A DNA stretch of 55,190 nt, taken from NCBI GenBank assembly GCA_964416025.1, contig CAYQCJ010000004.1, forward strand, positions 1 to 55,190, written 5' to 3'. The translations under genes and the position numbers were made by a program. The notes under the pieces are model-generated. The model was not told the origin of the DNA. It searched no databases and saw only the letters and a list, made by a program, of their open reading frames with translations. Positions 5,601-40,113 of the stretch are shown in pieces. Source of the DNA: an uncultured Staphylococcaceae bacterium (GTDB lineage Bacteria > Bacillota_I > Bacilli_A > RFN20 > CAG-826). The stretch's first letter is position 1. Each line of letters begins with the position of its first letter.

Positions 5601-5853
5601 CGGAACAAACATTATTTCCACTACCATCAGTCGCTGTTACGTATTTAAGGCCTTTAGTGTAGTCGCCTGTCGCATTATTTTCATATCGCACAGTGCCTTT
5701 TTGTTCAAATAATCTATTAGGGTTTCCATCTTCACTAACTTTCATTAATTCTTCAACTGAAAGCTCTGTATTAGTGCAAGCAGATAACATACTTAAACTT
5801 ACAACAGATAAACCAAACATCAACTTAACTTTTAAATTAAACATATTTTTCAT
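2671..5853 (-). CDS. BspA-type leucine-rich-repeat (LRR_5) lipoprotein, 1060 aa
   Basis: Lipobox LSMLSAC (Cys26); many 'I..xAF.xC..L..i.iP..v.tI' repeats. Confidence 0.9.
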   Translation of the reverse strand: MKNMFNLKVKLMFGLSVVSLSMLSACTNTELSVEELMKVSEDGNPNRLFEQKGTVRYENNATGDYTKGLKYVTATDGSGNNVCSVAYGDATETTYIKLPDTYVDDAGTVYTITSIANNAFSNIDFVSISQWPTNLTVMGKQAFTHSNFTSFTFPSGPTEIFPGTFEDCKDLTYFSFADTSIVTKIWDHAFAGCDYLGGLNDGTVGNFKLPNGLIEICSSAFSYCTYLQDIIIPTTVTTIRENAFYHCESVVYIHIPNISTVTIEKYAFRGISGAEIYLQADAIPTTYNTDWNRIGNKTGTSTDSTAYLQVILSIDAIGTENDFIYISQGEESYITRYVGYGTAITIPATIGGKPVVEVRKESFYYNNKITSVDMSAATSLTIIGEDAFNNCTALTTVTFPSSLITIKKEAFLNCTAITGLKIPKSVVTIEDSAFQNTYKVASLEFEGASTNTSNLASIGTNAFNSCGKGITPTKNVELIIPSSLMDNTGTTSYYKRIGNNAFQNCNFFTTLTFKDAANATLASTSATKINDNAFDSCTNLSKINWGNWVNELGGNIFGTCQKLPYVYIPLSINKIDGSIASNSMLTIYFEGATGSYGKIDGNAQNQGSSYNGAPFSSLKNGIYYNIGAETNIMRETTQGYYYIFDDATKKENTKEPNGNHITITGYVKTNAFLGLTANAATIKVAETHVYNGNSYTVTEIGQGAFAGDTSVKKFELPNTISFIGLSGFYACNNTLQIVGYTGTTYNANYVFPTSLAYICDNGLMKTKLTYVVLPTAVDIYFPDANYYVNKAPDTSTAARLNVFCRIEDCRGFSLGTAYNSAELVGTNLTSYDGCLYVNSSRTTCNQTVLYCIPRAKTTFSTYSGCNITGMDLFKNSPLTTINFNNGLISMYGWAFQDSGSLTTITLPTSLKYVSNSTFDGCGNLANFKSVDTAGTTSNASTILNFVDDKTTRTGNILSIGEAAFRNCAYTGVVLPISTNISISSEAFGNGTDSKKAYIYVSDKYADFVALHYADTSTNKWVNNVWNKNTKETIYYAETTADKTQSTVRYWHYVDGAPVIW

Positions 5854-18441: not shown

Positions 18442-19707
18442 GTGATTATTATGGGCGAAAATACAAAAGAAAATTTAAATACGAATGGCAAATACTTATT
18501 TGTCAGTGGAGTTGCACCACTTAAACAATTCAGAGTAAGAACAGCGCAATTAATAAACGGAATTGCTTGTCACTTAATTCCTTGGAAGTCTCCAAAATTG
18601 CTTCCAAATTACGATTATTTGGTTAAAAAATACAAAGAAAAAGGAAAGAAACATGTTTTAATTGTGGCTGATAAATCTGTTTATCAACTTGGCTTATTAA
18701 AATGTTTGTTAGTTGCCTTAGATAAAGAGAAAATAAAGTACTCAATTTTTACTGATATCAACCCAAATCCAACCATTACTAATATTAATAATGGAAAGGC
18801 TTTTTATTTGAGTGAAAAATGTGACTCAATAATTACAATTGGTGGAGGATCAGCTATGGATGCTGGAAAATCAATCGGCATTCTTATAACAAATAAAAAG
18901 CCAATTAATAAATATAAAGGATTATTTAAAGTTAGACATCCTTTACCACTTCTTTCAGCGATTCCAACAACTTGTGGCACTGGTTCTGAAACCACTTTAG
19001 CTGCAGTTATTTTAGATGATTCCACTGGAAAGAAATATCCAATTGAATCTAATAGAATTGTTCCATCATTTGCTTTACTTGATGTAAATCTAATTCGCGA
19101 TTTACCAAAGAGTGTTTTTGCTCAAACTGGTATGGACGCTTTAACCCATGCAATCGAAGCTTATTTAAATAATCACGGAACTCACAAAACTAGACAAATG
19201 GCTTTAAAAGCAATAAATATTATTGGTCAATATATCGAAGTTGGTTATTTTGGTGATATCCACGCAAGAAACGAAATGCTTAAAGCTTCTTATTTAGCTG
19301 GTAAGGCCTTTAATCGTGCGATGGTTGGCAATTGTCACGCAATTGCTCACGCAATTGGTGGAAAATATAATCTTCCTCATGGTTACTTAAATGCTGTTAT
19401 TTTACCTTTTGTTTTAACTACTTATTACACAAGAGCTACTTCAAAACTTGATACCATCAGTAAATCATTTGGTGTTCAAACAGGACACGACAAAAAACAA
19501 AATGCGATCAATGTAATTGAGCGCATTCAAGAATTAAATAGATTATTTGGTATACCAACATATATCGAACAAATTAAGGACGAAGACATTCCTCAATTAG
19601 CACAATCTGCTTATAAAGAAGCAGTACCACTTTACCCAACTCCTTTAGTTTATTCTTATAAGGATTTTGAAAGAGTTATTAAATTCTTGCAAACTAAAAA
19701 AGATTAA
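18442..19707 (+). CDS. Iron-containing alcohol dehydrogenase
   Basis: IGGGSAMDAGK, AIPTTCGTGSETT, GMDALTHAIEAY, HAIAHAIGG...HG. Confidence 0.95.
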   Translation: MIIMGENTKENLNTNGKYLFVSGVAPLKQFRVRTAQLINGIACHLIPWKSPKLLPNYDYLVKKYKEKGKKHVLIVADKSVYQLGLLKCLLVALDKEKIKYSIFTDINPNPTITNINNGKAFYLSEKCDSIITIGGGSAMDAGKSIGILITNKKPINKYKGLFKVRHPLPLLSAIPTTCGTGSETTLAAVILDDSTGKKYPIESNRIVPSFALLDVNLIRDLPKSVFAQTGMDALTHAIEAYLNNHGTHKTRQMALKAINIIGQYIEVGYFGDIHARNEMLKASYLAGKAFNRAMVGNCHAIAHAIGGKYNLPHGYLNAVILPFVLTTYYTRATSKLDTISKSFGVQTGHDKKQNAINVIERIQELNRLFGIPTYIEQIKDEDIPQLAQSAYKEAVPLYPTPLVYSYKDFERVIKFLQTKKD

Positions 19708-19734: not shown

Positions 19735-20457
19735 TTAGAATTGTTTCTTTTTATATATTCTAATTGATAAGAAATAAAAGAAGATTCCAACAGCAAGAAC
19801 AACCACTGATAAAGGAACCATAACTGCATATGAATAAAGAGCATTGCTTCCATTCATAAATGAAAGTTCGTAACTAAAAACTATTCCACCAATATAAATT
19901 GCGATAATAAAAATAGTAGTAAAAATACTTATTACTCTGGTTTTTACACTGCCTAAAGCCGTAGTAAATAATAAATTTAGAGTTAATAAAAATAATCCAA
20001 AAGATACAAAACCAATAAATGAAGAAATAGCATAATTTACATCAAATACTGGATAACCTTGAACTCCACTAAAGAAACAAGGTAAAAATAAGCAAATAGT
20101 TCCTAAAACAAATGGAACTGCAAAGCTTATTAAACCTAAAACTACTTTAGAATTTACAATTAACTTACGATCAACTCCCGCACTGATAATAAATTTATCA
20201 AAATTACATTTTTCATCTAATTCGTTAGAGATTGGAATAATAATTGAAGAGATAACAAGTAAATAACCTAAGCAAATAAACGATCCGCTATAGATTGCAC
20301 TTCTAATAATTTCTTCATTAGTTAATGTTGCAAAATCTTTATTAGGACTAGTAATAAAAGTAATTAAATAAACAGCAAATAAAAAAACATCAATAAGATA
20401 ATAAAGAATCATGAAATTCTTTAAATTATACAATTCTTTTAAAATTAAGCCTTTCAT
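19735..20457 (-). CDS. ABC-2 type transporter permease (about 6 TM)
   Basis: MKGLILKE start, DEKCNFDKFIIS.GVDRK.IVNSK motif; overlaps the ABC ATPase stop. Confidence 0.85.
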   Translation of the reverse strand: MKGLILKELYNLKNFMILYYLIDVFLFAVYLITFITSPNKDFATLTNEEIIRSAIYSGSFICLGYLLVISSIIIPISNELDEKCNFDKFIISAGVDRKLIVNSKVVLGLISFAVPFVLGTICLFLPCFFSGVQGYPVFDVNYAISSFIGFVSFGLFLLTLNLLFTTALGSVKTRVISIFTTIFIIAIYIGGIVFSYELSFMNGSNALYSYAVMVPLSVVVLAVGIFFYFLSIRIYKKKQF

Positions 20458-21305
20458 AATGTCTTCCCTCTAATCATAAATACCATGATATCTTCAATAC
20501 TTGCTGGCTTAACATTTTCACCAGTAAATACACCCTTTTTAACCAAAATCTCCGTTGAATCCCCAACGGATTTAATTCTAATGAGGTTTTCTTTATCTAA
20601 TTTTGTGACTTCTTCAGTAGAACATGACATAACATCATATAAAGATAAAAGAGTTTTCTTATCTTCGTTAATCATAATTTTTCCATCATGAATAATCACG
20701 ATATGATTACAGATTTTCTCTAAATCACTAATAATGTGACTCGATATTAAAACGCTATGTTCTTTATCTTTAACAAAATCAACTAAGATCTCCATAACAT
20801 CATCTCTAGCCACTGGATCAAGTCCATTCATTGGTTCATCAAGAATTAAAAGTTTTGATTTATGGGAAAAGGCGATTGATAAATTTAATTTAGCTTTCAT
20901 ACCTTTACTTAAATCAGATATTTTCTTATCTTCTGAAATACCAAATCTCTTTAAATAAGAACTGAATATTTCATCAGACCAATTTTTGAATATATTAGCA
21001 AAAACCTTCTTTAATAGTTTAATAGGAAGCTTTTCAGGTAAACAAACTTCATCTAAAACAACACCAATATCTTCTCTTTCGCTTGGAGTTAAATCTTTTA
21101 AAGGCTTACCAAAAACATTAATAGTTCCACTATCAAATTTAATAAGATCAACAATACTCTTCATTGTGGTTGATTTACCAGCTCCATTTTCGCCAATAAA
21201 ACCAACAATACTGCCAGCAGGAATTACAAAAGATACATTTGAAAGAGTAAATTCCTTATACTTTTTCGTAACATCAATTAATTCAATAAAATTTTCATTT
21301 GTCAT
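20454..21305 (-). CDS. ABC exporter ATP-binding protein
   Basis: GENGAGKST, LSKGMK, LDEPMNGLD, SSH. Confidence 0.95.
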   Translation of the reverse strand: MTNENFIELIDVTKKYKEFTLSNVSFVIPAGSIVGFIGENGAGKSTTMKSIVDLIKFDSGTINVFGKPLKDLTPSEREDIGVVLDEVCLPEKLPIKLLKKVFANIFKNWSDEIFSSYLKRFGISEDKKISDLSKGMKAKLNLSIAFSHKSKLLILDEPMNGLDPVARDDVMEILVDFVKDKEHSVLISSHIISDLEKICNHIVIIHDGKIMINEDKKTLLSLYDVMSCSTEEVTKLDKENLIRIKSVGDSTEILVKKGVFTGENVKPASIEDIMVFMIRGKTL

Positions 21306-21349: not shown

Positions 21350-21404
21350 GGAAATTCGTCAAAAATCCCCTGTAAAAACCCCTTATTTTTGGAAATAAGG
21401 GGTT
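21350..21404 (-). repeat. Dispersed G-tract repeat, copy C, with an extra inverted arm forming a hairpin
   Basis: Minus strand AACCCCTTATTT-CCAA-AAATAAGGGGTTTTTACAGGGGATTTTTGACGAATTTCC. Confidence 0.7.
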
Positions 21405-21424: not shown

Positions 21425-22825
21425 TTAGAAGAATCTTGAAATTAAGTCTTTAGAATATTCGGCAGTTTCTTCCATATCGCCGAAACTCATTACCTCTCCA
21501 GCATAATATGTATGACGCTCACCTTGTTTGGCTTCGACTTTATCGTACCAACCAGCAGCATAGTCTTCACTATACACATGTGGGCAATAATACCATTCAG
21601 TTTCTTTAAATACTTCTTTAACTTCGACTCCACATAATTTCATATCTTCAATCGTCCAAACTCTACCATCTTCATATTTAATATCTTCATCATCTTTATG
21701 ATTTAATAAAGTATATGTAGTAATAGGTTGAACTTTAATATCAGACCATCTGTGGTAATAAACCATTAAATGACCACGTCTATCTGGAGTCATATTATCA
21801 AAGATATAAGCCGAAATTTGTGGTTCTTGGCCTTCAACTTGTCTTGTAGCCATTGAAACATATCTTTCATGAACAATCTTGGAGAATAATTCTTTTTCTT
21901 CTTTGTCGGCATCAGCAAATTTAGCAAAATAATCTAATGGAGTAGTAACAATTAAATCATCGAATGTATTGGTGTGTTCACCATCTTTATCTTTAATTGT
22001 AACTTTGACATCTTTATCGCTACGCTCAACTTTAATAACTTGAGTATTACAAATTGTTGGTTTATTTAACTTCTTATCAACACCTTGCCATATTGACATA
22101 GTTCCATCTTTCCATGTCCATAATCTCATAGCAACGAATTCTAATGTTGTTTCAACATCGAGATATTTAAGAACATAGGCAGCTGGCATCTCATCAAAGA
22201 AACCATATCCGAAACTTGTAAATGGAGCAATCCAAACTCTCATAACAGGTTCAATTTTATTTAATTTACAGAATTCTGTAAATGGTAAGCATAAATCTCT
22301 TAAATTTGGGTTTTCGCCTTTAATACGTGGCATTTCTTGAGATGAAGGTTGAAGTCCTTCATATTTACCACTAGCAACTCCTCTATGTCCGCAAACATCA
22401 TAACCGGCGTATTTAGTCTTCATCAATTTAGCTAATTTCTTAACACAGTTCTTCATGTGTATTAAGCCAAATACTTTACCATTTAAAATATTCTTTTTTG
22501 GATCAAATGGGAATATCTCTTTACCTTCAGCATTTTTATAAATTCTACCCATTCCTGGACCATCGTGTTTAGTTCCACCAAACATTTCCGCATCATGAGT
22601 TGCGTAATAAGTTTTAGCACCCATAATAGCACCCATTTCAATAGTACGTTTCTCTCCAGTTTTTGGATCCATAACTACAGTTGGAGAATAACATTTTCCA
22701 CCTACATGATCGTCTTTTTCATAAATAGTAACATCTTTGTATCCTTTTTGTTGAAGATACATTGCAGCCATAACACCAGCTGGACCTCCACCAATGATAC
22801 AAATCTTCTTATCTAATTTAGCCAT
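21425..22825 (-). CDS. FAD-dependent polyunsaturated fatty acid (linoleate) isomerase, PAI-like
   Basis: End-to-end recognisable similarity to Cutibacterium acnes PAI: HVGGKC, EMGAIMG, PFTSFGYG..D..PAAYVLKYLD, LWTW.DGT, GHLMVYYHRW, WYY.PHV.SEDY.AGWY.KVE..QG.R.TYYAGE.MSFG. Confidence 0.88.
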   Translation of the reverse strand: MAKLDKKICIIGGGPAGVMAAMYLQQKGYKDVTIYEKDDHVGGKCYSPTVVMDPKTGEKRTIEMGAIMGAKTYYATHDAEMFGGTKHDGPGMGRIYKNAEGKEIFPFDPKKNILNGKVFGLIHMKNCVKKLAKLMKTKYAGYDVCGHRGVASGKYEGLQPSSQEMPRIKGENPNLRDLCLPFTEFCKLNKIEPVMRVWIAPFTSFGYGFFDEMPAAYVLKYLDVETTLEFVAMRLWTWKDGTMSIWQGVDKKLNKPTICNTQVIKVERSDKDVKVTIKDKDGEHTNTFDDLIVTTPLDYFAKFADADKEEKELFSKIVHERYVSMATRQVEGQEPQISAYIFDNMTPDRRGHLMVYYHRWSDIKVQPITTYTLLNHKDDEDIKYEDGRVWTIEDMKLCGVEVKEVFKETEWYYCPHVYSEDYAAGWYDKVEAKQGERHTYYAGEVMSFGDMEETAEYSKDLISRFF

Positions 22826-22960
22826 ATTATTTGGCCTCCTTTTTTGTATACTTTAATTATTATAGGACTTAAAAAATTAGATATAAAGCGAATATTTAAT
22901 TAATTCAGTATTATTTTACTTAAAAGCAAAAAGAGGTTAAAAAGTAATTATTTCTAAAAT

Positions 22961-24613
22961 TTATTTTTCATATTGCAAATCGACACAATAAGATATGATT
23001 TTGTGAACTTTGCTATCCATAGAAGGATTATTAACACCAACAAAATCCAAAAATTTGAATTTAGCATCCCCCTGTAATGAATTATTTTTTATATCAATCC
23101 GTTCTTTTTTAATCCTACTGAGTATTTTTCCTTGATTATCTTTTGAAATCTTTTTTAAAAATTGCATTTTGAATTTTGAAAAATCTAAAATGCTATTAAC
23201 GTTATAGAAAAAGATTTCAAACCATGCATCTATCAAATAATCTAAATCAAATGATGTCAAATCATTTTTTAAATTGTATTCTTCACATGTTGTTTCAGAT
23301 TCATAAAAGTTATCGCCACCGGCAACATTATATATATGCAAAAAATCAACCAGCAATTCTACCAGTTCCGCCCCATCAAAGCAGCCTATATTGTTATGCG
23401 CTTGTTCCTTTAAAGAAGAACTTCCATAACTTAAAGAACTATCATTGACAAAACTGTTAATATTTTTAAATGCAAACTTATTATTAACCAATTTAACGTT
23501 AATGACGTAACAGAAAAAGGTTAGCCAAAAATAAATTAAATAATCTGGATGCTTATCATTATAATGGAAAAATACGTTTTCATCTCTTGCTTTATTTAAA
23601 AACCATACATCGTTATTTAATGTAGAATAAACTAGCATTTTAGTAATAATTGCCAATGACAAATCTCTTGATTTAGAATTTTCAAATAAACACTCACATA
23701 GTCTATAAACAATCAACTCTCCATAACTGTCAGCACAATCTTCCCCTTCAAAAAACTTAGTTATTTTGTTAATAAAAATGATGCTAGTTGTATATTTGCA
23801 TACTATGTTATCAATTTTTAAAGAATCAAGATTTTTTTCATTATCATATTTTCTTAAAAAATAGGAATAATTTTGAAAACCATTTTCTATTATATCAAGG
23901 ATTGAAATATCAAAAAATGAGTTACGATATGGATTTTTAGAACTCTTTATTTCGTTATTCAATAACTTTAAAAAATCATTTTGAAAATCAAATAATTTTA
24001 AAAACAAATAATCTTCTTCCGTGTTATTACTTTTCAAAACCTTATATGTATATTCAATTCCGTTTGTAAAAATCACGTTTTGTATTACTTTTTTTAATAT
24101 AACAAAACTATCATCATTTACATTGTTTGTATAATTTTTTGAATAAATTTTAAATTTATGAGAAATTGTCTGATTAATCCTTTTTTTGTTATACATTAAG
24201 TAAGGGACCTCTTGAACGGAAAACAAGGTAGCATAAAATAATGCTATAAGATCTAATGTAATCATTGAAATTGTCAACTTAAAAATCGAAAAATATGTAT
24301 AAAAAGCAAAAGATAGAATCACTATCAATATCATCGACAAAAAAGAAAAATTAAAATCACTTTTAAGCTTATTAAAATCTACCCTTGATACCCCACATAT
24401 AGTTTCTTTATTAATCGATAAAACTATTGAAATTATAGTTACTATTGCAGGAAGTAAAACCAAAACACCATTCACCTGAAATTCGTTAATACATATTCCT
24501 ATTCTATTAAATTGCTCAAGAAACAAAATGACTATTAATCCTATAAATAATAGTAACTTCAACAAATTGCAAAGGATAGAATGTAAAATAGGTTTTTTCT
24601 TGTTTTTAATCAT
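22961..24613 (-). CDS. Hypothetical protein, N-terminal multi-TM region plus large soluble domain, 550 aa
   Basis: About 4 hydrophobic helices in the first ~140 aa; very AT-rich; family not recognised. Confidence 0.7.
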   Translation of the reverse strand: MIKNKKKPILHSILCNLLKLLLFIGLIVILFLEQFNRIGICINEFQVNGVLVLLPAIVTIISIVLSINKETICGVSRVDFNKLKSDFNFSFLSMILIVILSFAFYTYFSIFKLTISMITLDLIALFYATLFSVQEVPYLMYNKKRINQTISHKFKIYSKNYTNNVNDDSFVILKKVIQNVIFTNGIEYTYKVLKSNNTEEDYLFLKLFDFQNDFLKLLNNEIKSSKNPYRNSFFDISILDIIENGFQNYSYFLRKYDNEKNLDSLKIDNIVCKYTTSIIFINKITKFFEGEDCADSYGELIVYRLCECLFENSKSRDLSLAIITKMLVYSTLNNDVWFLNKARDENVFFHYNDKHPDYLIYFWLTFFCYVINVKLVNNKFAFKNINSFVNDSSLSYGSSSLKEQAHNNIGCFDGAELVELLVDFLHIYNVAGGDNFYESETTCEEYNLKNDLTSFDLDYLIDAWFEIFFYNVNSILDFSKFKMQFLKKISKDNQGKILSRIKKERIDIKNNSLQGDAKFKFLDFVGVNNPSMDSKVHKIISYCVDLQYEK

Positions 24614-24818: not shown

Positions 24819-27800
24819 CTATTCATAAACAATCTCAATAGATGTAATTTTGTTACCTGCAGTAGCTGTAAATGTAACTGATGTTGCATCAACTACAATA
24901 CTAGTATCAGATGAAATAGCTTTATTAGCAGAATCTTTTAATTTAACAGCAGTGCCAACGATTTTAATTGTTTTGATTTTTTTACCATTATTAGCTGTTA
25001 TATTAAGGTTTCCTCCGGTATAGATTCTCCAGTTTGTTCCTGAAACGTAATACTTTGGATCTAAATCACCGCCTTTTGTAGCAGAAACAGTAACGTTATC
25101 ATCTCCAGTTGGCAAATCAGTGACAACCTTAGCGTTAGCCCAATTATTTGCTTTTGCAATATCAGCAACAACTAAATTTAATGTTGTTTCTGTAACAACC
25201 GGTGCACTAATTACAACATGAACAACTAATGAATTATATCCACTCTTTGCAACTGTAACATCAGTTTCGCCAGCAGCAACAGCGTGAATCTTATTATCAA
25301 CAATTGTACAAATTGTTTCGTCTCCAGAAGTCATTGTATAGTCAGGAACAGCAACACTATCACTTGTAATTGTTAATGCTTGATCAGCATCACCAACTGT
25401 AAGAGCAACGCTAGTAGGATCAGAAACCATATCAGTTAAAGTAGCATCAACAACACTTAATGTAAATTCAGCAGATGTATATCCTTCGTAAGTTAATGTT
25501 ATTGTGGCTGTTCCAGCAGTTAATCCAGTAACTAAACCACTTGCATCAATAGAAGCAATAGTTGAACTTTCTTCGCTTACTGCCCAGGTAGCACCTGTAA
25601 CGGATGCTCCTCTTCCATCTAAAGCACTTAATTGAAGAGTTTCGCCCAGTTTAACAGAAGTTGCATCTCCAGCAGCACCAATAACTAATTGTGCTTTTAA
25701 TGGGTCAATAACAGTAATTTCAACTGGAGCACTTGTTAAATCACCATATTTAGCGACAACATTAGCTCTTCCAACTGAAGTTGCACTAACGACATTGCCA
25801 GCAATTGTGGCACCAGTTGTTCCAGCATCACTAACTTCATAAGTTATAGCACTAGCGTCAACTGAACTGTTCCAAGCACCAGTAGATGTAGTACTTAAAG
25901 TAATTGTTTCGTTTAGATCAGCTGTTTTGCCAAGTTGAATGATTGGTTTATCAGCAACACATTTAATTGATTCAGGAGCAATATTTGTCTTTGTGATTGT
26001 AGTTGTTGATAATAACAATAATTGAATAGTAGAATAATTGTTCGAAATAACTGTATTAATTTCAACAAAATCATTTACGGCTAAACCAGTTAAAGCATCT
26101 TTAGAAATATTTGAATTTCTATACATTTTAATTGATTTTCCATCAACTTCTAAAGTGGTCAATCCACTTTTAGTAACATCACTTGTATCAAGTGCGATAA
26201 TTTTAGCTTGAACTTTTACTTTATTACCACTATTTGCAAGCACGAAATTTTCTGTAGCACTAGCATTATCGTTAATGACTGTTTCAGTAACAGTTATTTC
26301 ATCTGTTATTTCTTTAATATATGAAGTGGAAGATTTTACAAGTTCAACAGTACTGTTAAATGTGTCCTTACTAGCATAAACATCGTAAGTTTTTCCTTCT
26401 TCCATACCATGACTACTAATAAACACTAATACACCAGTATTTCCGTTTTGAATATAAGCACTACCAGCATTTTTAACATAAGTACATTTACCTTTGACTC
26501 TAACCATTGTATTGTCAACAACAGTTTTAGCAGCAGCAATTGTGCTTACTTCAATTTCTGTGAAGGTGGCTCCAAAAACATAGGAGTGTCTATCTTCAGT
26601 TGTAAATTTATAAGCAGTTCCAGTAGCTATAATTTCAGTTTCTTCGCCACCATCGACTTTAACCCAAACTTTAGTTAATAAATAACTTTGATCTGGAGTA
26701 GCAGTAATTGTAACTTCACCTACTGCAATATCAGTTCCAGCAACAGGAGAAATTTCAACAGTTCCATTTGTAATCGATGTTGAAACTGAAGTTGTACATT
26801 TTTCAATGTGAGTAGCTGTAATTGTAATTGTATTAGATTTAAGATCACCAATTTGACCATAAACTTTAATTGTTCCGGCCTTGGTAACAGTTAATACTTT
26901 ATCACTAATAGTTCCAGTTCCGGTACTGTTAGCAGTATCAATAACATATTCAAATCCAGTTGTATCTCCATCAGTTGGATTAAATGTTTCACTAAATGTA
27001 ACTTTTTCAGTATCTTCAATTTCAGTCTTATCAGCTGCAATGGTAATTGTTGTAACGGTTGGAAGAACAGCAGTAATACTAACTGGCTCTGAAACGATTG
27101 AGCCAACAGTAGCAATAACATTAATTGTTCCAACTCCAGTAATAGTTAATACATTACTTTCGATAGTTCCAGTTCCGGTACTTCCTTCTTTAATGGAATA
27201 AACAATTCCACTAATATCAGCAAGTTCAGGAGAAGCTTTAGCAGTAAATATAACTTCTTCGTGTAAAGCAGCACTGGCTTTATCACTAGTAATTGATAAA
27301 CCAGTTAATTCAGGAAGAGTTCCAGTAATTTTAATTTCGTTAGAAACGACATCACCAACTTTAGCAACAACATAAACATCACCAGCTCCAGTAATTGTTA
27401 CAGAATTTCCTTCAATTGTTCCTTTTCCAGTACTCTTATCTAAAATAGCTAAAGAAACTTCACTAGCATCGCTAGTTTCTGGAGTAGCTTCATACGTAAA
27501 GTTAAATGTAGTGCCAATGACACCAGTTGAATCAGCAGAAGTTAATTTAAGTTCAAGAGCAGTGACATTTGGTTTCTTAGCAGTAAATTCAATAACATTT
27601 GATTTAATTTCACCAACATTAGCTTGAACTTTAATAGTTCCTTCTTTAGTAATTGTTAATTCATTTTTATTTGTTTCATCAAATGTTCCGGCTCCAGTAC
27701 TATCTTCTAATAAGGAATAAGTAAGTCCTTCTAAGGAAGCAAGTTCAGGGCTTTGAACACTTGTAAATGTTACTTTATTACCAATTCGAGGATCGCTTGA

Positions 27801-29246
27801 AACATCGCTTGATAAAGTAATAGCAGTTAATTTAGGTAAAGCAACTTTAATGGTAACAACATTAGATTCAATAGTACCAACTTTAGCACTAACTAAAATA
27901 TCGCCTTCTCCAGTAACAGTTAATTTATTTCCGTTGATGGTTCCGCTTCCGGAGCTTTTATCTTTTAAAATAGAATAAGTAATTCCACTTAAAGAAGCAT
28001 CTTTAGGTGAAGCAAAACTTGTAAATTCAACAACATCATTAATTACAACATTTGTCTTATTAGCTTCAATATTAATACCAGTTAATGCAGGTAAAGAAGC
28101 AGTAATTGTAACTTCGTTTGAAGTAATATTTTTAACTTTAGCAACAACCTTGATTGTTCCGACTTTAGTAATAGTTAAAACATTTTTATCAAATGTTCCA
28201 TTTCCAGTACTATCACTAGTAACTTCGTATTTAAGACCAATAATACTAGCAATTTCAGGAGTTGGAAGAGCAGTAAATATTACTTCATTTCCAAGGATTG
28301 CTGTTGTTTTATCAGCACGTAATGTTAATGATTTTAAGTTTGGTAAAGAAGCAGTAATTGTTAATTTATTAGAAACAATAGTTCCAACAGTAGCAGTGAC
28401 TACAATAGTTCCTTCTTTAGTAATTTTTAATTTATTATCTTTAATAGTTCCAGCACCTGTTGAACTCTTTTCAATATTATATTTAAGCCCTTCAATACTA
28501 GCAATTTCAGGATTTGGAGTAGCTGTTAAAGTAATCTCATCTCCAATAACACCACCATTACTCGTGGCAGTTAAATTAATTGATTTTAAATTTGGTAATG
28601 AAGCAGTGATAGTGACTTTATTAGAAACAATTGTTCCAACACTAGCACTAACAATAATTGAACCTTTTTTGGTAATAGTTAATTTATTATCTTTAAGAGT
28701 TCCAGCACCAGTTGAATCTTTTTCAATCTTATATGTAAGACCAGTAATTACAGAATTAACTGGAGTTTGTTTTACAGTAAATGTAATAACGTCTCCAATA
28801 ATTCCAGCACTTGCTGAACTAGTTAAGGTTAATGATTTAAGATCTGGAGCGACAACTGAAACACTAATTTCAATCTTGATTCCGCCACCACTTACAGTAA
28901 TTTTTGTTGATCCCGCTTTAAGAGCAGTTAATTTTAAACCATTAACGCTAATGACAGTTGAATCATCAATGGTAATTTTAATTTTGCCATTCTTAATTAA
29001 AGTACTTATATCAAGAACACCACCTAAATCATCAAAACCACTTAAATCAACGCTTCTTTCGTCGCCAATTATCCACTTGGCCTCTAATGAAGTTTTATTA
29101 TTGACTGTTAAACTTCCGAATTTCTCTTCTTCGACTGGTGTTTGTTCTGAAATGATTTCACAGCCAGCTAAGCTACTAACTGCTAATGCACTAAAGAGCA
29201 AAACACTACTCGCCATCACGACTCTTTTAAATTTTCCTTTTGACAT
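24819..29246 (-). CDS. Giant surface lipoprotein, 1475 aa, with ~8 tandem Ig-like (Big_2-type) repeats and OB-fold-like segments
   Basis: Lipobox SLAGC (Cys29); repeats starting PDLKSL/LPNLKS/LPNLKS/LPALTG/LPKLTA/KPNVTA/LPELTG/LPTVTT; STIAAAK...VRVKG...AYIQNGNTGVLVF. Confidence 0.85.
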   Translation of the reverse strand: MSKGKFKRVVMASSVLLFSALAVSSLAGCEIISEQTPVEEEKFGSLTVNNKTSLEAKWIIGDERSVDLSGFDDLGGVLDISTLIKNGKIKITIDDSTVISVNGLKLTALKAGSTKITVSGGGIKIEISVSVVAPDLKSLTLTSSASAGIIGDVITFTVKQTPVNSVITGLTYKIEKDSTGAGTLKDNKLTITKKGSIIVSASVGTIVSNKVTITASLPNLKSINLTATSNGGVIGDEITLTATPNPEIASIEGLKYNIEKSSTGAGTIKDNKLKITKEGTIVVTATVGTIVSNKLTITASLPNLKSLTLRADKTTAILGNEVIFTALPTPEIASIIGLKYEVTSDSTGNGTFDKNVLTITKVGTIKVVAKVKNITSNEVTITASLPALTGINIEANKTNVVINDVVEFTSFASPKDASLSGITYSILKDKSSGSGTINGNKLTVTGEGDILVSAKVGTIESNVVTIKVALPKLTAITLSSDVSSDPRIGNKVTFTSVQSPELASLEGLTYSLLEDSTGAGTFDETNKNELTITKEGTIKVQANVGEIKSNVIEFTAKKPNVTALELKLTSADSTGVIGTTFNFTYEATPETSDASEVSLAILDKSTGKGTIEGNSVTITGAGDVYVVAKVGDVVSNEIKITGTLPELTGLSITSDKASAALHEEVIFTAKASPELADISGIVYSIKEGSTGTGTIESNVLTITGVGTINVIATVGSIVSEPVSITAVLPTVTTITIAADKTEIEDTEKVTFSETFNPTDGDTTGFEYVIDTANSTGTGTISDKVLTVTKAGTIKVYGQIGDLKSNTITITATHIEKCTTSVSTSITNGTVEISPVAGTDIAVGEVTITATPDQSYLLTKVWVKVDGGEETEIIATGTAYKFTTEDRHSYVFGATFTEIEVSTIAAAKTVVDNTMVRVKGKCTYVKNAGSAYIQNGNTGVLVFISSHGMEEGKTYDVYASKDTFNSTVELVKSSTSYIKEITDEITVTETVINDNASATENFVLANSGNKVKVQAKIIALDTSDVTKSGLTTLEVDGKSIKMYRNSNISKDALTGLAVNDFVEINTVISNNYSTIQLLLLSTTTITKTNIAPESIKCVADKPIIQLGKTADLNETITLSTTSTGAWNSSVDASAITYEVSDAGTTGATIAGNVVSATSVGRANVVAKYGDLTSAPVEITVIDPLKAQLVIGAAGDATSVKLGETLQLSALDGRGASVTGATWAVSEESSTIASIDASGLVTGLTAGTATITLTYEGYTSAEFTLSVVDATLTDMVSDPTSVALTVGDADQALTITSDSVAVPDYTMTSGDETICTIVDNKIHAVAAGETDVTVAKSGYNSLVVHVVISAPVVTETTLNLVVADIAKANNWANAKVVTDLPTGDDNVTVSATKGGDLDPKYYVSGTNWRIYTGGNLNITANNGKKIKTIKIVGTAVKLKDSANKAISSDTSIVVDATSVTFTATAGNKITSIEIVYE

Positions 29247-30686: not shown

Positions 30687-31556
30687 TTATTTATAGGCGA
30701 TTTTAAGTCTTTCTAAAGAATCAATAAAATATTGTTTAGACCAATTTAATAATGAATTTTGTTCTTCAATAAAGTCTTTTACATCGTTCTTTGCTTCTTC
30801 ATAATCAATTACGTTAAATTTATCGGTTAATAATTGTTTCAATAAATCCAAATCTAATATAGTAAATTGTTCAATTAATTTGGCCTTAATCAAATTATTT
30901 TCTAAATATTTTAAATTTATAGAAGCGCCTTTACCTATGTAAAATAGATAATCATACAAGTCTCTTCCTTTAACTCTATTTTTCCAAGGCCTAGATAAAA
31001 TGGCCGAAATCTTTCCAGCAAACAAAGACGGAATATCTAAAGTTTTAACATCGCCAAAAAATGGCTCACTCACATTCAACCAAGAATAATTGGCGCCATA
31101 TGGTGGTTCAATATCTACCTCAAACTTTACTTTTATAAGTGAATTGTGATTAATATTTTTAATCTTCATATCTGGAAAAAGAACTGTAAGAGTTTCAATA
31201 GTGTTTTCTTTTAAGAAAGCGCTTCTTGTATCACTAGCAACAATTTTTTCTCTTTGTTCTAGAGTTATTTTTAATCCGTAAATATCGAATATTTTTTTAA
31301 TTTCTTGAAAATATCTATCCCAAGAGAATTTTTCATCTTTTGCAATTAAACAAAAATCTAAATCTTCCGAAAATCGTGGTAAACCATAAAAAATTCTTAA
31401 ACAAGTACCGCCATAAAAGGCAGCATTAGAGAAAAAATTTGTCTTAGCTAATGAAGCTAAAATAGTTTCTTGAACCACTTCTTTAATTTTGTTTTCTAAT
31501 TCAACATCGTTGCGCGGATTTTTAGATAAGACCATTTCAGTTAATTTGTTGTTCAT
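30687..31556 (-). CDS. abiEii: AbiEii-family nucleotidyltransferase (type IV TA toxin)
   Basis: AFYGGTCLRIFYGLPRFSEDLDF, KGRDLYD; start reassigned to MNNK after GGAGA. Confidence 0.9.
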   Translation of the reverse strand: MNNKLTEMVLSKNPRNDVELENKIKEVVQETILASLAKTNFFSNAAFYGGTCLRIFYGLPRFSEDLDFCLIAKDEKFSWDRYFQEIKKIFDIYGLKITLEQREKIVASDTRSAFLKENTIETLTVLFPDMKIKNINHNSLIKVKFEVDIEPPYGANYSWLNVSEPFFGDVKTLDIPSLFAGKISAILSRPWKNRVKGRDLYDYLFYIGKGASINLKYLENNLIKAKLIEQFTILDLDLLKQLLTDKFNVIDYEEAKNDVKDFIEEQNSLLNWSKQYFIDSLERLKIAYK

Positions 31557-32127
31557 CGTTATCTCCAATCATTTTTAAAAGCAAATTAGTGTTTTTGCAT
31601 TTGTATTTTGGCAGCAAAAATCTAAGATCTTTTTTCGAAAGTTTATTAAACTCATATATATCAATTCTTAAATCCACAAATAGCAAATTCTTTAGTATCT
31701 TAAGTGAAGATACAGGTTTTAAAGTATACAAAAAATCAGCTAAAGCTTTTTCTTTGCTTGCAATTTGAACTCCATTTTCTATAGTTGTAACACCAAAAGG
31801 AAAACATATTATTGGTATATTTTGATACCTATATAATCCGAAGGGTGTTTTGTATTGTTTTGATTTATGTTTTCCAGTAATTGCGCTAGTAATCAAATAT
31901 ACTCTTTCAGGAATTAAACCATAAAAAGACAAGGCATAATCAAAAGAAATGTAACTTGGGCGAATTATTGCATTAGCAATTTTTTTAATATCTTCATTTG
32001 TATTGTCTGAATACAAATTTCGGCAAATTCTAATTAAGCGACCGCTCAAAATTTCTGTTTCAATCTTACTATGTAAATTAGAATAATCTTTAAATTTATC
32101 ATTTAAATATTTAGTATTAAAAATCAC
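31537..32127 (-). CDS. abiEi: AbiEi-family antitoxin / transcriptional regulator
   Basis: LIRICRNLY, PSYISFDYALSFYGLIPE, IASKEKALAD; overlaps abiEii. Confidence 0.9.
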   Translation of the reverse strand: MIFNTKYLNDKFKDYSNLHSKIETEILSGRLIRICRNLYSDNTNEDIKKIANAIIRPSYISFDYALSFYGLIPERVYLITSAITGKHKSKQYKTPFGLYRYQNIPIICFPFGVTTIENGVQIASKEKALADFLYTLKPVSSLKILKNLLFVDLRIDIYEFNKLSKKDLRFLLPKYKCKNTNLLLKMIGDNDEQQIN

Positions 32128-32785: not shown

Positions 32786-34771
32786 TTAATGCATGTTCTC
32801 TGTATTTTTAATGTCATCTACAAATATAATTTTTTTATAAAATGTTTTTTCTAAATTGTTTTCGTTAGTTGCTGGTTTTCCATTGATACCAACTGTAATT
32901 TCAGTACTTACATTCTTAATAAATTCCTTTTTTGTTCCTGGATAAACCAACTTTTTAAAAGGATTAAAATTATTATTTTCAGGTAAATTGACACAAAGTG
33001 TTTTCAATGTTTTTGGTAAATAATACACACAAGACAAAAATTTATGTAATGAACGCATATCAATATTTTCGCAAGATTCACTAAATATAAACTTTTTAAG
33101 AGTTCTATTTTTGGTACTACAATATGCGCAATTAAAAGCAAACTCTTTTGGAACTTCGAAATCATGCATTTGTGGATTGAAACCAAAAATTATGTTTTTT
33201 TCTTTACTATTTACATCTATATTTTGAAATAAAACACCTTTAAAAGAACTAAAGCACTCATTTCCTTCTTCAACTTCATATGTCGTAACATATTTAAATA
33301 CATTTTTAAGAATTATCTTCGTTTGTTTAAATATTTTTAAAGGTGTTTTAATTTTATCCACTACTCCAACAACTTCATTTTTATCTTTCGTATAAATATA
33401 GTTATTGACTTGTATATATCGATTATTATCAATACTATGACCACAATAAATCTCAAAATCTTGATACCATCCCCATTTGTGTTTCAAATATTTTGAAAGA
33501 AATATTTTTCCGGTTGGAGAATAAAGACCTAAACGAGCCTCATCGCATAGAGTAACTTTATTTGGAAAAATACATTTTTTCTTATAATCTTTTAAGTTAT
33601 TATTTTTAATGCTTTTCGGAAGAACAGATACTAAATTATCGCAATAATTAAAAGAATTATAGTATGAAGATTTTAAGTTATTTGGTAAGAAAACAACCTC
33701 TAAATTGGAATTAAAGAATGCATATTGAGCGATGTATTGAACTGAATCAGGAACATTATAAACATTTTTATTTCTTCCAAAATAATAAAAAAGAGTTTTC
33801 ATGTCTTTTGTATATATAGCATCATCAAAAACTTTATATTTATTATTATTTTGCCTAATTTTTATGTTTGATATATTCACATACCCTTTATTTGTATAAT
33901 TTTGTTTTAAAAAATCTAAATTCTTTAAACTATTTGGAATAGTAACATCACTATTATTAAAGATAATATTTACTTTCTTATCAATATATTTAATATTTGA
34001 ATTGCTGAATTCGGTTGAATCTAAACATAAAGTAAATTTACTATTTCGTTTTTTATTTTGAGTTATAGCTTCTAAACTTTTAGGGATTTTACCTATCTTT
34101 ATTGTTGTTCCCAGATTTAAATTAATGGGGTTTACATATAGCACTTTAACATGATCATTTATTCTAATTTCGTTATTTTCAAAAATACAAAACATTTTTG
34201 TTTTATCTCTTGAATAAATTCCGTATTCATCCATACAAAGATATTTATTATCTGGATCAATAATAATATTTTCTCTATTAAGATACTTATTAGGTCCATC
34301 AAAAGTAATTGTTTTAATATTTTTATTTATAAATAAGACATCTATTTTTTCGTCCTGCAATTTATTTAAATTTATTTCTACCTTACTAATTGCTTTATAT
34401 CCTATTAACATTGGAATAATAATCGGTGATTTATTTGGGGTCAGATAGCATTTATTATTTTCGTATGTTGACGAGCAAAAGAAATCAGTTTCGTTATTTG
34501 TTAATTGTAAACGAGTTTGCATACGATAATAATTTAACTTCATATGATATTCATCATAAATTGACATTTTGGCAGTTAAATATTTAATAATTTTATTATT
34601 TTTATATATTAGGCACTTTACTATATAATCCCCAATTTCGCGTTTATTGTTGCCAATATATTTAAAGAAGTATTCAGAGACAGTCGGGCCTTTAATAAGA
34701 ATAGAGTGTTCCTTTCCATCATAAATAAATATCTTATTTACGAATGTGAAATTTTCAAAAACCATTGCCAA
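32786..34771 (-). CDS. Degenerate BspA-like LRR protein without signal peptide, 661 aa
   Basis: YNVPDSVQYIAQYAFFNSNLEVVFLPNNL, DDAIYTKDMKTLFYY; N-terminal YDGKEHSI..G segment; no hydrophobic leader. Confidence 0.65.
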   Translation of the reverse strand: MAMVFENFTFVNKIFIYDGKEHSILIKGPTVSEYFFKYIGNNKREIGDYIVKCLIYKNNKIIKYLTAKMSIYDEYHMKLNYYRMQTRLQLTNNETDFFCSSTYENNKCYLTPNKSPIIIPMLIGYKAISKVEINLNKLQDEKIDVLFINKNIKTITFDGPNKYLNRENIIIDPDNKYLCMDEYGIYSRDKTKMFCIFENNEIRINDHVKVLYVNPINLNLGTTIKIGKIPKSLEAITQNKKRNSKFTLCLDSTEFSNSNIKYIDKKVNIIFNNSDVTIPNSLKNLDFLKQNYTNKGYVNISNIKIRQNNNKYKVFDDAIYTKDMKTLFYYFGRNKNVYNVPDSVQYIAQYAFFNSNLEVVFLPNNLKSSYYNSFNYCDNLVSVLPKSIKNNNLKDYKKKCIFPNKVTLCDEARLGLYSPTGKIFLSKYLKHKWGWYQDFEIYCGHSIDNNRYIQVNNYIYTKDKNEVVGVVDKIKTPLKIFKQTKIILKNVFKYVTTYEVEEGNECFSSFKGVLFQNIDVNSKEKNIIFGFNPQMHDFEVPKEFAFNCAYCSTKNRTLKKFIFSESCENIDMRSLHKFLSCVYYLPKTLKTLCVNLPENNNFNPFKKLVYPGTKKEFIKNVSTEITVGINGKPATNENNLEKTFYKKIIFVDDIKNTENMH

Positions 34772-37402: not shown

Positions 37403-38662
37403 CTATTTCTTTTCGTTTGCTAATGCGGTAGCTTCTTTTTGCATAACTGGTAAGCTTTCTTTTAACCCACCATTTCCAGAAGCGTAAAGCTCATTAGCGT
37501 ATTCTAATAACTCTTTTTTGTGTTGTCTCAGATAACGCATCACTTTTTTCTCTCTTTTATTGACTATTTTAAATATGCCAGTTTCACGTCTATTAAGCAT
37601 CTTTTGGCTAGCACATGAACTACCTTCATAGTAGTATTTTTTGCCATAAATCAGTGTGCGAGTTAATAGCCTATCAGCAAGGTCATGCGCCTTTATATTG
37701 TCGCTAAATGCACCAATTTCTATTTTTCCAAATATTATCTTTTCCGCACACTCACCACCTAGAATAATGTCAATCTTTTCGAATCTTTTTTCTACTGTGT
37801 CTTTCTTTTCATCAGTGTCGTAGATATTGGCAACACCACCGGTACTATTAAAGTTAGTCTTGAAACACTTAAAGTCTTTGCTATATTTCATACTCACTAG
37901 GTAATGCCCAGCTTCATGGATTGCTACATTATAATCCTTTTTGTTACTCGTATTAGACACATATTCATCTAGGACGATTCGAGAATACGACTTTTCTAAG
38001 TCTTCTAGACTTGCATTACTTTTGTGTAATAAATATGCATCGTTACATATTTGCTTGATATCAATGCAACTCACACCACAACAAATCAAGCTGATATATT
38101 TGATTTCATCTTCCTTTAGGTTGATACCAAGATTTGTTAGCATCTTCTTAAACAATAATCTTTTGGTATTCGTATCAGGCTTTTCGATAAAGATTCGACG
38201 ATCTATCCTGCCGTTTCTAAGTAAACTGCTTGGCAATTCTAATGGGTCTCGGTTTGTTGCTGCTATTGAGAAAACTATTCCACTATTGTTATACCCATCT
38301 AATTCAGTCTGTAAAGCTCTTAGACATCTTTGATCGTTAGTAATAAGATGATCGATTTCATCGATTATTACGACTGCTTTTTTGCATTTTCTCGCGGCGG
38401 CATACTTATTAGTTATTTCACCATAAGTATCTTGGGTATTTTCAATTACGAATGTTTCGCAATTGAAAGCTTTGGCAAATTCTCTCATAATAAGAGTTTT
38501 GCCGCACCCTTGGTCTCCATAGAGTAATAAACCTCTTGGGAGACTGATTTTTTTATTGTTCAATAATTCATCATCATTAAACCATTCACATATCGTCCCT
38601 AATTCCTCTTTGACATCATCGTATCCAATTACGGTGTCCAAAAAACTATTATCAAGTTTCAT
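37403..38662 (-). CDS. Membrane-less FtsH-like AAA+ ATPase / M41 metalloprotease, copy 1
   Basis: GDQGCGKT, IIDEID, LLRNGRIDR, HEAGH, GAFSD; no TM segment. Confidence 0.85.
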   Translation of the reverse strand: MKLDNSFLDTVIGYDDVKEELGTICEWFNDDELLNNKKISLPRGLLLYGDQGCGKTLIMREFAKAFNCETFVIENTQDTYGEITNKYAAARKCKKAVVIIDEIDHLITNDQRCLRALQTELDGYNNSGIVFSIAATNRDPLELPSSLLRNGRIDRRIFIEKPDTNTKRLLFKKMLTNLGINLKEDEIKYISLICCGVSCIDIKQICNDAYLLHKSNASLEDLEKSYSRIVLDEYVSNTSNKKDYNVAIHEAGHYLVSMKYSKDFKCFKTNFNSTGGVANIYDTDEKKDTVEKRFEKIDIILGGECAEKIIFGKIEIGAFSDNIKAHDLADRLLTRTLIYGKKYYYEGSSCASQKMLNRRETGIFKIVNKREKKVMRYLRQHKKELLEYANELYASGNGGLKESLPVMQKEATALANEKK

Positions 38663-39941: not shown

Positions 39942-39968
39942 GCCTCCTTATTTCTTAACATAAAGAGG

Positions 39969-40000
39969 AATATAAAAGCCCATCGTAATGATGGGCTTTA
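39969..40000 (-). terminator. Riboswitch expression-platform terminator
   Basis: AAAGCCCATC-ATTAC-GATGGGCTTT-TATATT; its 5' arm CCCAUCAUU is complementary to the aptamer 3' end AAUGAUGGG. Confidence 0.85.
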
Positions 40001-40019
40001 TTTAATAATTTAAACATAT

Positions 40020-40106: not shown

Positions 40107-40113
40107 AATTCTT

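Follow-up and report, generated by a model that had tools for sequence, protein, structure and literature searches.

[quoted passage not shown] To our knowledge, the isomerase PAI of Cutibacterium (Propionibacterium) acnes, for which the structures PDB 2B9W, 2B9X, 2B9Y, 2BA9, 2BAB and 2BAC are available, is the sole genetically defined enzyme of a t10,c12-CLA producer. Liavonchanka et al. (2006/2009) reportedly worked out the PAI mechanism, which is the source of the analogy used here, and are said to have identified Arg88 as carboxylate anchor and gate and Phe193 as a gate residue. The MCRA or fatty-acid hydratase types (CLA-HY, LAI) and the Bifidobacterium BBI share with PAI the theme of gut-bacterial CLA and belong to unrelated families; their routes involve hydroxy or oxo intermediates, or a membrane protein.

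When 28 cultured rumen species were tested, C. acnes alone formed t10 products, and the rumen numbers of this species are too low to account for the trans-10 shift (PMC7339423). Sharpea, a member of the Erysipelotrichales, has been reported to form trans-11, not trans-10, products, and a 2026 review calls the hosts and enzymes of the biohydrogenation steps “poorly resolved”. In 2023, PAI-like genes were reported in rumen MAGs (Lachnospiraceae, Oscillospiraceae and unclassified) through BLASTp matches of at least 40% identity to PAI ADE00997, and one of these MAGs correlated with milk t10,c12-CLA (PMC10019597). That study did not divide its sequences into clades and offered neither residue-level analysis nor biochemistry; the general idea of PAI-like genes in uncultured bacteria is nonetheless already published at the metagenome level. 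Two further papers were set aside: in a Mycoplasma hyopneumoniae modelling paper, the terms “PAI”, “Arg88” and “Phe168” refer to residues of a NusB model, and a Fusarium “FgLAI12” paper offered no usable link to PAI homology.

Here, a PAI-like gene was analysed in a 55,190-nucleotide stretch of DNA (the window) from an uncultured bacterium. Its features, all on the minus strand, are listed below in the order of transcription.

22859..22887, minus: promoter-like TTTATA-17-TATAAT, 10/12 consensus match (a consensus match only)
22835..22840, minus: Shine-Dalgarno sequence AGGAGG, 9 nt ahead of the ATG, read from the sequence
21425..22825, minus: open reading frame of 466 aa, ATG start, TAA stop
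22775..22792, minus: GGGPAG, residues 12-17, dinucleotide-binding GxGxxG motif, identical or nearly so to PAI in the alignments
22691..22708, minus: HVGGKC, residues 40-45, following Glu36, likewise identical or nearly so to PAI
22649..22678, minus: first insertion region, VVMDPKTGEK, residues 50-59, about 7 aa beyond PAI after PAI Y51 (a gap in PAI)
22544..22546, minus: codon of Arg94, aligned with PAI Arg88
22307..22384, minus: second insertion region, RGVASGKYEGLQPSSQEMPRIKGENP, residues 148-173, about 23 aa between PAI H133/Y134 and E139
22211..22213, minus: codon of Phe205, aligned with PAI Phe168, in the family-wide F-G-Y-G motif
22136..22138, minus: codon of Phe230, aligned with PAI Phe193
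21584..21586, minus: codon of Cys414, replacing PAI Phe371 (WYYCPHV versus WYYFPHV), clade-specific
21479..21508, minus: YYAGEVMSFG, residues 440-449, C-terminal, present in PAI as FYAGEIMSFG
21374..21404, minus: terminator-like hairpin (12-bp stem, 4-nt loop, U-run), 21 nt past the stop codon

The gene, with a GC content of 34%, forms a self-contained, stand-alone transcription unit, as PAI does. Promoter-like sites are no more frequent in the window than in shuffled sequence. A simple terminator scan did not report the hairpin 3' of the stop codon; RNA folding supports it, with a fold of -14.8 kcal/mol (z -2.5 versus shuffles). Like that of PAI, the N-terminus of the encoded protein lacks a signal peptide and any membrane segment; a Rossmann strand begins at residue 7.

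The preliminary description had presented the product as a 466-aa flavoprotein colinear with PAI, and the open reading frame and its full-length, collinear homology bear this out. Among solved structures, the best phmmer match was C. acnes PAI (2b9w, E 1.1e-111), with the next match at 3e-07. BLASTP against PAI covered residues 5-466 with 44% identity and 58% positives (E 3e-123); identity is 44% when gaps are counted and 48% on aligned columns. At 377 bits, PAI would rank second among the 50%-identity cluster representatives of a 1.8-billion-protein library, and it is the nearest characterised protein. An AF2 model of the protein (pLDDT 84.6, pTM 0.87) has a predicted three-domain flavin amine-oxidase-type fold that superposes on 2B9W in Foldseek with TM 0.96/0.87, an rmsd of 2.8 A and E 1e-48. 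The term “close homologue” in that description therefore holds in that the homology lies far beyond chance, but it needs qualification at 44-48% identity; other non-propionibacterial proteins stand closer to PAI (54-63%).

The FAD-binding motifs of the family are all in place: the GxGxxG...E segment, HVGGKC and the C-terminal YAGE. Within 49 members of the clade to which the protein belongs (the query clade), residues G12, G14, G17, E36, G42, G43 and K44 are invariant, as are G443, E444, F448 and G449 of YYAGEVMSFG, a segment with a putative role in FAD binding by analogy with the amine-oxidase fold in general. The sequence segments quoted earlier were all located (DGPGMGRIY at 88-96, TSFGY at 203-207, YLDVETTLEF at 221-230, together with the two insertion regions), and the equivalences that had been proposed for Arg88 and Phe193 proved correct. 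HMMER, BLASTP and MAFFT alignments independently paired R88, F168 and F193 with R94, F205 and F230. Arginine occupies the PAI-88 position in 116/118 members of the query clade, 107/107 of a related clade of about 451 aa and 9/9 of the PAI group, against only 10/102 of the remaining family members. Phenylalanine is found at PAI-193 in all members of the same three groups (118/118, 107/107 and 9/9) and in 9/102 of the rest, and at PAI-168 in 118/118, 107/107 and 9/9. The channel-gate and carboxylate-anchor positions, plus Phe168, are thus kept, the roles of the residues being those attributed to them in PAI.

Neighbour-joining (not maximum-likelihood) trees join the query clade and PAI as a single subfamily, apart from the other members of the family, with a bootstrap of 99, and of 87 in an independent sampling. 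This subfamily has three forms, a short form, a 451-aa form and a 466-470-aa form. PAI belongs to the short-form group (bootstrap 81), which also has an Oscillospiraceae member, while the window protein, on its sequence, falls in the sister long-form group (bootstrap 71), outside PAI's own clade. An orthologue of PAI would lie within the short-form clade and lack insertions; the window protein is of the long form, with +7 and +23 aa. The alignment and tree accordingly uphold the conserved Arg and Phe and the joint subfamily, but not orthology. The 451-aa clade, which is sister to the query clade inside the long-form group, shares the second insertion and the Arg/Phe/Phe triad with the window protein, and differs from it in having no first insertion, Phe at PAI 371 and a slightly higher identity to PAI (49-53%). 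Its members are uncharacterised and come from MAGs of Solobacterium, Bulleidia, Erysipelotrichales, Lachnospiraceae and Eggerthellaceae.

Taken together, the window protein is probably a PAI-type polyunsaturated fatty-acid isomerase. With a probability of roughly 0.6, it would be a soluble cytoplasmic FAD enzyme of the PAI subfamily whose likeliest activity is the conversion of the cis,cis diene of a free C18 polyunsaturated fatty acid to a conjugated diene. Following the PAI analogy, the substrate would be the methylene-interrupted cis,cis diene of free linoleic or linolenic acid, which would enter a hydrophobic channel with Arg94 and Phe230 at its mouth, in the place of Arg88 and Phe193 in PAI. 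The Arg at the channel mouth would grip the carboxylate and thereby place the bis-allylic C11 over flavin N5. A hydride would then pass from C11 to the flavin and on to C9, so that the 10-trans,12-cis isomer would form in a reaction that is redox-neutral overall and needs no external cofactor. Substrate and isomerase chemistry are here proposed by this analogy, and since the window protein lies outside PAI's own clade, the t10,c12 product in particular would be an extrapolation.

The two “extra segments” pointed out earlier are real insertions relative to PAI. The first is predicted to be a beta-hairpin extension (strands E49-53 and E58-61 in the AF2 model) and is restricted, with lengths of +4 to +9 aa, to the sub-clade of the window protein. 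The second, at +22 to +24 aa, is present in 50/50 sampled long-form members and in none of the PAI group. Its residues G149, A151, G153, G157, G170 and N172 are invariant in the 49 clade members, and the model gives it three short predicted beta-strands (E145-148, E154-158 and E167-171; pLDDT 81-89). As it sits between Arg94 and Phe230 in sequence, it could reshape the channel mouth. In addition, 11 fixed differences, mostly conservative, separate the query clade from the PAI group over 202 conserved positions, among them the replacement of Phe371 by Cys414 beside a family-invariant Pro-His. Cys occupies position 371 in 97% of query-clade proteins, as opposed to Phe in 99% of those of the 451-aa clade and also in the PAI group, and this change may speak against a t10,c12 product.

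These differences bear on a serious, if unlikely, alternative: that the protein carries out the same FAD-mediated double-bond migration with a regiospecificity or preferred substrate unlike that of PAI, for example giving a c9,t11-type product, preferring 18:3 or longer polyunsaturated acids, or binding in a register shifted by the insertion and the Phe371-to-Cys change. The separation of long-form and short-form groups into distinct clades, the conserved 23-aa insertion between the two gate residues and the fixed Phe-to-Cys are consistent with such a change, and specificity would not be safely assumed at 44-48% identity. Erysipelotrichales such as Sharpea are reported as rapid trans-11 makers, most rumen isomerisations have no known genes, and C. 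acnes itself forms several 18:3 products. However, no evidence links the Sharpea activity to a PAI-like gene, the strictly conserved anchor and gate residues argue for the same binding register, and the query clade agrees with the PAI group, in at least 90% of its members, at 133/202 (66%) of the latter's conserved positions.

A quite improbable reading is that only the scaffold is shared with PAI and that the protein is a net-redox enzyme of the flavin amine-oxidase fold (an oxidase, dehydrogenase or desaturase) acting on another hydrophobic substrate. Public annotations read “FAD-dependent oxidoreductase” or “protoporphyrinogen oxidase”, and the other characterised members of the fold, with which the protein shares the superfamily architecture and the GxGxxG...E FAD domain, are oxidases: CpaO (beta-cyclopiazonate dehydrogenase, PDB 9KP8/9VEX), PPOX, monoamine oxidase and the nicotine and putrescine oxidases. 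CpaO, which binds FAD covalently (PMC13003489), was the Foldseek match after PAI, with TM 0.72-0.77 and 16% identity. These enzymes are only 11-16% identical to the window protein with TM 0.6-0.77, versus 43-48% and TM 0.96 for PAI, and they perform net oxidations with unrelated substrate domains. The window protein also keeps the Arg and Phe specific to PAI. The name protoporphyrinogen oxidase, given by JGI to several homologues, was rejected, as the models score far under their cut-offs (TIGR00562, 29.7 bits versus 97.85; NF008845, 33 versus 560) over short matches at residues 6-52, the N-terminal dinucleotide-binding region, and residues 236-308, respectively. Membership of the MCRA/fatty-acid hydratase “linoleate isomerase” family was also rejected, with no MCRA domain among the 14 Pfam families matched at E <= 0.01 in the window protein.

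The gene neighbourhood bears on the same question. In Lachnospiraceae and Eubacterium loci, the next gene after the PAI homologue encodes a large GltD-like Fe-S flavoprotein, which might serve in electron transfer. In contrast, no redox partner gene was found in the window or in the sub-clade of the window protein, where the PAI-like gene is always a singleton, an arrangement that fits a cofactor-neutral isomerase. No lipid-pathway neighbour was found within the window either, and in an all-against-all BLAST of 14 loci searched for a conserved lipid-pathway neighbour, nothing recurred outside closely related genomes. The 79% homologue has genes for glycerol-3-P dehydrogenase, an FAD-linked oxidase and DagK upstream; this trio was rejected as conserved context, since it occurs neither in the window nor with the 78%, 68% and 61% homologues. 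An inactive relic or a mis-called open reading frame, for which no supporting point was found, is effectively refuted by the intact frame with its strong Shine-Dalgarno sequence and terminator-like hairpin, by about 130 residues invariant over 49 homologues of 56-79% identity, and by chromosomal synteny kept across related genomes.

The placement in a non-propionibacterial, low-GC genome was confirmed, with a GC content of 29% and a RimO protein closest to those of uncultured Bacilli, “Mollicutes” and Ca. Onthovivens MAGs; the host is thus a low-GC uncultured member of the Bacilli, unlike the actinobacterial host of PAI. The nearest homologues of the window protein are 77-79% identical, and their source records name no host. 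A scan of genome contigs, which used peptide patterns derived from the query and covered close relatives only, gave 9 loci. Nothing ties the window organism to the rumen, as homologues from ruminant-gut MAGs were found only at about 57% identity. Lachnospiraceae bacterium FE2018, a Hungate strain in culture, has a homologue of 57% identity. The window protein is not special: similar proteins number in the hundreds, and the long-form group is very large, with members in uncultured Bacilli, Erysipelotrichales, Lachnospiraceae and Coriobacteriia. Its members are named only “FAD-dependent oxidoreductase”, and no assay of any of them is reported in the searchable literature. The suggestion of an unrecognised producer lineage is only partly true: PMC10019597 had already proposed PAI homologues in uncultured Firmicutes as a t10,c12-CLA source, and the window protein would count as “PAI” under its identity threshold.

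What is added here is one more uncharacterised member of the PAI subfamily, a definition of its clades (short, 451-aa and 466-470-aa forms) and a set of residues to mutate. The physiological role of a PAI-type isomerase in this organism would likely be the handling or detoxification of exogenous unsaturated fatty acids by an anaerobic host- or waste-associated bacterium. It is also possible, if somewhat doubtful, that the long-form clade, common among uncultured Bacilli, Erysipelotrichales and Lachnospiraceae of gut and rumen, is the main enzymatic source of trans-10 biohydrogenation intermediates, or else a PAI-fold isomerase with another specificity (e.g. c9,t11), one to which no gene has so far been assigned, brought about by the insertion and the Phe-to-Cys change. 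Should the long-form proteins prove to be active isomerases, the organisms that carry them would become candidates for the trans-10 shift and their gene a marker of it, and new biocatalysts for isomer-pure CLA would be gained.

The gene occupies 21425..22825 on the minus strand as an unbroken reading frame from ATG to TAA encoding 466 aa, and tblastn found only this one copy in the window. Its GC content is 34%, compared with 29% for the window. The peptides quoted in the preliminary description were all found in the product (DGPGMGRIY at residues 88-96, TSFGY at 203-207 and YLDVETTLEF at 221-230), as were the two extra segments, VVMDPKTGEK at residues 50-59 and RGVASGKYEGLQPSSQEMPRIKGENP at residues 148-173. 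Several signals flank the gene:

22887..22859, minus strand: promoter-like TTTATA-17-TATAAT, a consensus match only
9 nt 5' of the ATG, minus strand: AGGAGG, read from the sequence
21 nt 3' of the stop codon, minus strand: hairpin with a 12-bp stem and U-run (-14.8 kcal/mol, z -2.5)

The downstream ABC-transporter gene has a separate promoter-like site of its own. Judging by these flanking signals, the gene looks like its own transcription unit.

Homology to PAI, the Cutibacterium acnes linoleate isomerase that yields trans-10,cis-12 (t10,c12) CLA, is established. In a search of all PDB chains, PAI was the top match (E 1.1e-111, 377 bits) and the runner-up reached 3e-07; the PAI entries, 2B9W and five siblings, were deposited under the name 'putative aminooxidase'. 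The PAI sequence was rebuilt from this alignment, and its natural cluster (P0271, 424 aa, 677 member sequences) was recovered later. BLASTP aligned residues 5-466 to PAI with 44% identity, 58% positives and 10% gaps (E 3e-123), or 48% identity when only aligned columns count. Both proteins contain the FAD motifs GGGPAG, Glu36, HVGGKC and YYAGEVMSFG. An AlphaFold2 model built with 49 homologues as input (pLDDT 84.6, pTM 0.87) predicts a fold whose best structural match is again 2B9W (TM 0.96 PAI-normalised, 0.87 normalised to the window protein, rmsd 2.8 A, E 1e-48), followed by CpaO (TM 0.72-0.77, 16% identity) and by nicotine, putrescine and monoamine oxidases and PPOX (11-16% identity). As Pfam returned the generic Amino_oxidase and NAD_binding_8 alone and no NCBIfam model scored above cut-off, current annotation gives the protein no specific name.

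The family is large: when 1.84 billion cluster representatives were scanned exhaustively, 1703 homologues emerged at E <= 1e-3, with 772 of them at <= 1e-10 and 158 at <= 1e-30. The PAI score would rank second in that scan, which puts PAI among the nearest relatives at the 50%-cluster level. In a PAI-seeded search, the most PAI-like sequences were the C. acnes cluster, then short-form proteins of 421-443 aa (one labelled 'MAG: Oscillospiraceae bacterium'), then a very large ~451-aa clade with 49-53% identity to PAI and MAG names including Solobacterium, Bulleidia, Erysipelotrichales/-aceae, Lachnospiraceae, Eggerthellaceae and Coriobacteriales. The window protein's own relatives are 462-470 aa long, with the MAG names Bacilli, Erysipelotrichaceae and Lachnospiraceae. 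In a neighbour-joining tree of 73 sequences (200 bootstraps), the PAI-like subfamily (bootstrap 99) splits into two sister groups, A and B. Group A (bootstrap 81) is short-form, includes PAI and has no insertions, and group B (bootstrap 71) is long-form, with insertion 2 (the residue 148-173 region, +22 to +24 aa) in 50/50 sampled members. Group B divides over insertion 1 (the residue 50-59 region): the 451-aa clade is without it, and the window protein's lineage (bootstrap 86) mostly has it, at +4 to +9 aa. Independent broader sampling agrees, with bootstraps of 94 for this lineage and 87 for the clade including PAI. Because the protein falls in the long-form group, these trees assign it to the PAI subfamily but outside PAI's own clade. 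Nor is it the closest non-propionibacterial relative, as the short-form proteins reach 54-63% identity to PAI. In the PAI group (clusters P0271 and P0274-P0281), the sole named source other than C. acnes is the Oscillospiraceae MAG. Given these short-form companions and a subfamily dominated by Firmicutes, horizontal transfer may have brought PAI into the actinobacterium C. acnes.

The proposed residue equivalences were correct in all alignments: PAI Arg88, Phe168 and Phe193 correspond to Arg94, Phe205 and Phe230. Arg88 and Phe193 are the PAI gate residues. Loss of this substrate-gating Arg/Phe pair was not seen; both are kept.

Residues matching PAI at three positions. Counts for the rest of the family come from a separate analysis.
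PAI Arg88 position: PAI group 9/9; 451-aa clade 107/107; window protein's clade 116/118 (two His); rest of family 10/102
PAI Phe168 position: PAI group 9/9; 451-aa clade 107/107; window protein's clade 118/118; rest of family 42/102
PAI Phe193 position: PAI group 9/9; 451-aa clade 107/107; window protein's clade 118/118; rest of family 9/102

Since Arg88 and the gate Phe are near-universal in the subfamily and infrequent elsewhere, they are a subfamily signature rather than a general fold feature. The homology, fold, motifs and gate residues are all shown, and the substrate and t10,c12 product are inferred from them; on this footing we put at roughly 60% the probability that the protein is a PAI-type FAD-dependent isomerase of free polyunsaturated fatty acids, which by analogy would shuttle hydride through flavin N5 as PAI does.

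Of 202 positions at least 88% conserved in the PAI group, 133 keep an identical residue across 90% or more of the window protein's clade. Eleven differences between the two are fixed (L36Y, K54R, V64A, M74E, L86M, F90Y, L121M, I226V, Y247F, F371C and D409E), most of them conservative. The notable exception, Phe371 to Cys414, is specific to this clade and lies immediately before the family-invariant Pro-His (WYYFPHV to WYYCPHV). Insertion 2 has invariant G149, A151, G153, G157, G170 and N172 across 49 homologues and three short strands in the model (pLDDT 81-89), and is therefore predicted to be ordered and not a floppy loop; as it falls between both gate residues in sequence, it may lie near the channel mouth. 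Insertion 2 and Cys414 could change the substrate or its register while leaving PAI chemistry intact, an alternative we consider unlikely though deserving of some weight.

Four features surround the gene in the window, and none of its neighbours is lipid-related:

18442-19707, plus strand: iron-type alcohol dehydrogenase
19735-21305, minus strand: ABC-2 transporter pair
22961-24613, minus strand: 550-aa protein without family match
24819-29246, minus strand: 1475-aa surface-type protein with many ~90-aa repeats (Big_2-type by eye only)

In other genomes, the 79% homologue (loci L010:1858-7822, L001, L011 and L012) and the 77% homologue (L005) adjoin an anaerobic glycerol-3-phosphate dehydrogenase operon (DAO+Fer2_BFD, Pyr_redox_2, DUF1667), and the 79% group also has a FAD_binding_4 (FAD-linked) oxidase and a DagK/YegS lipid kinase on the same strand upstream of the PAI-like gene. 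This dehydrogenase context hints at glycerolipid metabolism; the arrangement is not conserved beyond the closest homologues. In Lachnospiraceae bacterium FE2018 and ruminant-gut Eubacterium MAGs (L006:8137-11283, L007:7417-10200, L009:7416-10199), the gene directly after the PAI homologue, in the same orientation, encodes a GltD-like Fe-S flavoprotein of 930-1050 aa (Fer4, Fer4_20, Pyr_redox_2; NF009410 at 417 bits, under its cut-off). This flavoprotein might serve as a redox partner, or even be a candidate for a CLA reductase, but its domain set is generic and the window has no such gene.

The 78%, 68% and 61% homologues lie in a conserved core block of inositol monophosphatase (divergent), the PAI-like gene, FBP aldolase (convergent), HARE-HTH, ArgS, IspF and YchF, always alone between opposite-strand neighbours, and one contig with this block is 1.63 Mb. 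This gene order shows the gene to be stably chromosomal and to lack an operon partner, in line with what a cofactor-neutral isomerase would need. More doubtful still is a net-redox flavoenzyme with some other lipophilic substrate, like CpaO and the amine oxidases elsewhere in the fold. The conservation pattern rules out an inactive relic.

As the preliminary description had it, the host genome is low-GC (29% in the window) and non-propionibacterial; its RimO relatives mark the host as an uncultured member of the Bacilli. Host RimO has 89% identity to a metagenomic protein and 59-66% to its named relatives ('Bacilli bacterium', 'Mollicutes bacterium', 'Candidatus Onthovivens sp.'). Homologues of the PAI-like protein at ~57% come from roe deer and goat jejunum (ruminant-gut) MAGs and the cultured rumen isolate Lachnospiraceae bacterium FE2018. 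Two further large surface-type proteins, typical of host- or community-associated anaerobes, are encoded in the window:

2671-5853, minus strand: 1060-aa BspA-type LRR protein
32786-34771, minus strand: 661-aa LRR_5 protein

The window is strongly co-oriented, as on Firmicutes/Mollicutes leading strands: the minus strand carries nearly every long ORF, and GC skew stays negative from end to end. A SAM riboswitch (RF00162, 45.7 bits) lies at 40018-40108 on the minus strand, and no ORF of at least 40 aa occurs in any frame across the ~740 nt between it and the next gene at 38740-39279 (window 39280-40108); it may be orphaned, or its downstream gene may have decayed. At 30687-32127 on the minus strand, an AbiEii nucleotidyltransferase toxin (PF08843, E 5e-29) and an overlapping, weakly AbiEi antitoxin-like upstream ORF form a type IV toxin-antitoxin or abortive-infection pair. 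Two FtsH-like proteins (AAA + Peptidase_M41; 37403-38662 and 42785-44068, minus strand), at 419 and 427 aa, are too short for the usual N-terminal membrane part; they lie amid AAA_3, DUF2201 metallopeptidase-like and PD-(D/E)XK genes, which suggests a possible defence or mobile region.

Reviews to mid-2026 still list PAI as the lone 'group I' isomerase (PMC13365329). Among 28 rumen species screened, only C. acnes gave t10 products, and the authors judged it improbable that this species is the sole or principal producer in vivo; the paper also notes trans-11 intermediates from Sharpea (PMC7339423). An August 2026 review describes the hosts and enzymes of specific steps as poorly resolved (PMC13464031). 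A 2023 BLASTp search of rumen metagenomes with PAI (at least 40% identity) reported 'PAI' in seven MAGs (two Lachnospiraceae, one Oscillospiraceae, four unclassified), and one Lachnospiraceae MAG correlated positively with milk t10,c12-18:2 (PMC10019597). Our literature search found no published biochemical test of a PAI homologue outside Cutibacterium. The observation is confirmed and its interpretation partly supported: PAI-like genes in rumen MAGs were already published, which weakens the proposal of an unrecognised producer lineage. The value of the finding is lowered as the idea is already out at the metagenome level, as we only infer the product isomer, and as a rumen link of the window's organism is not demonstrated, the records with 77-79% homologues naming no host. 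The protein adds an uncharacterised member to a known kind of enzyme and represents a structurally distinct long-form clade widespread in anaerobic Firmicutes; its importance is as a candidate, open to testing, for answering an old question.
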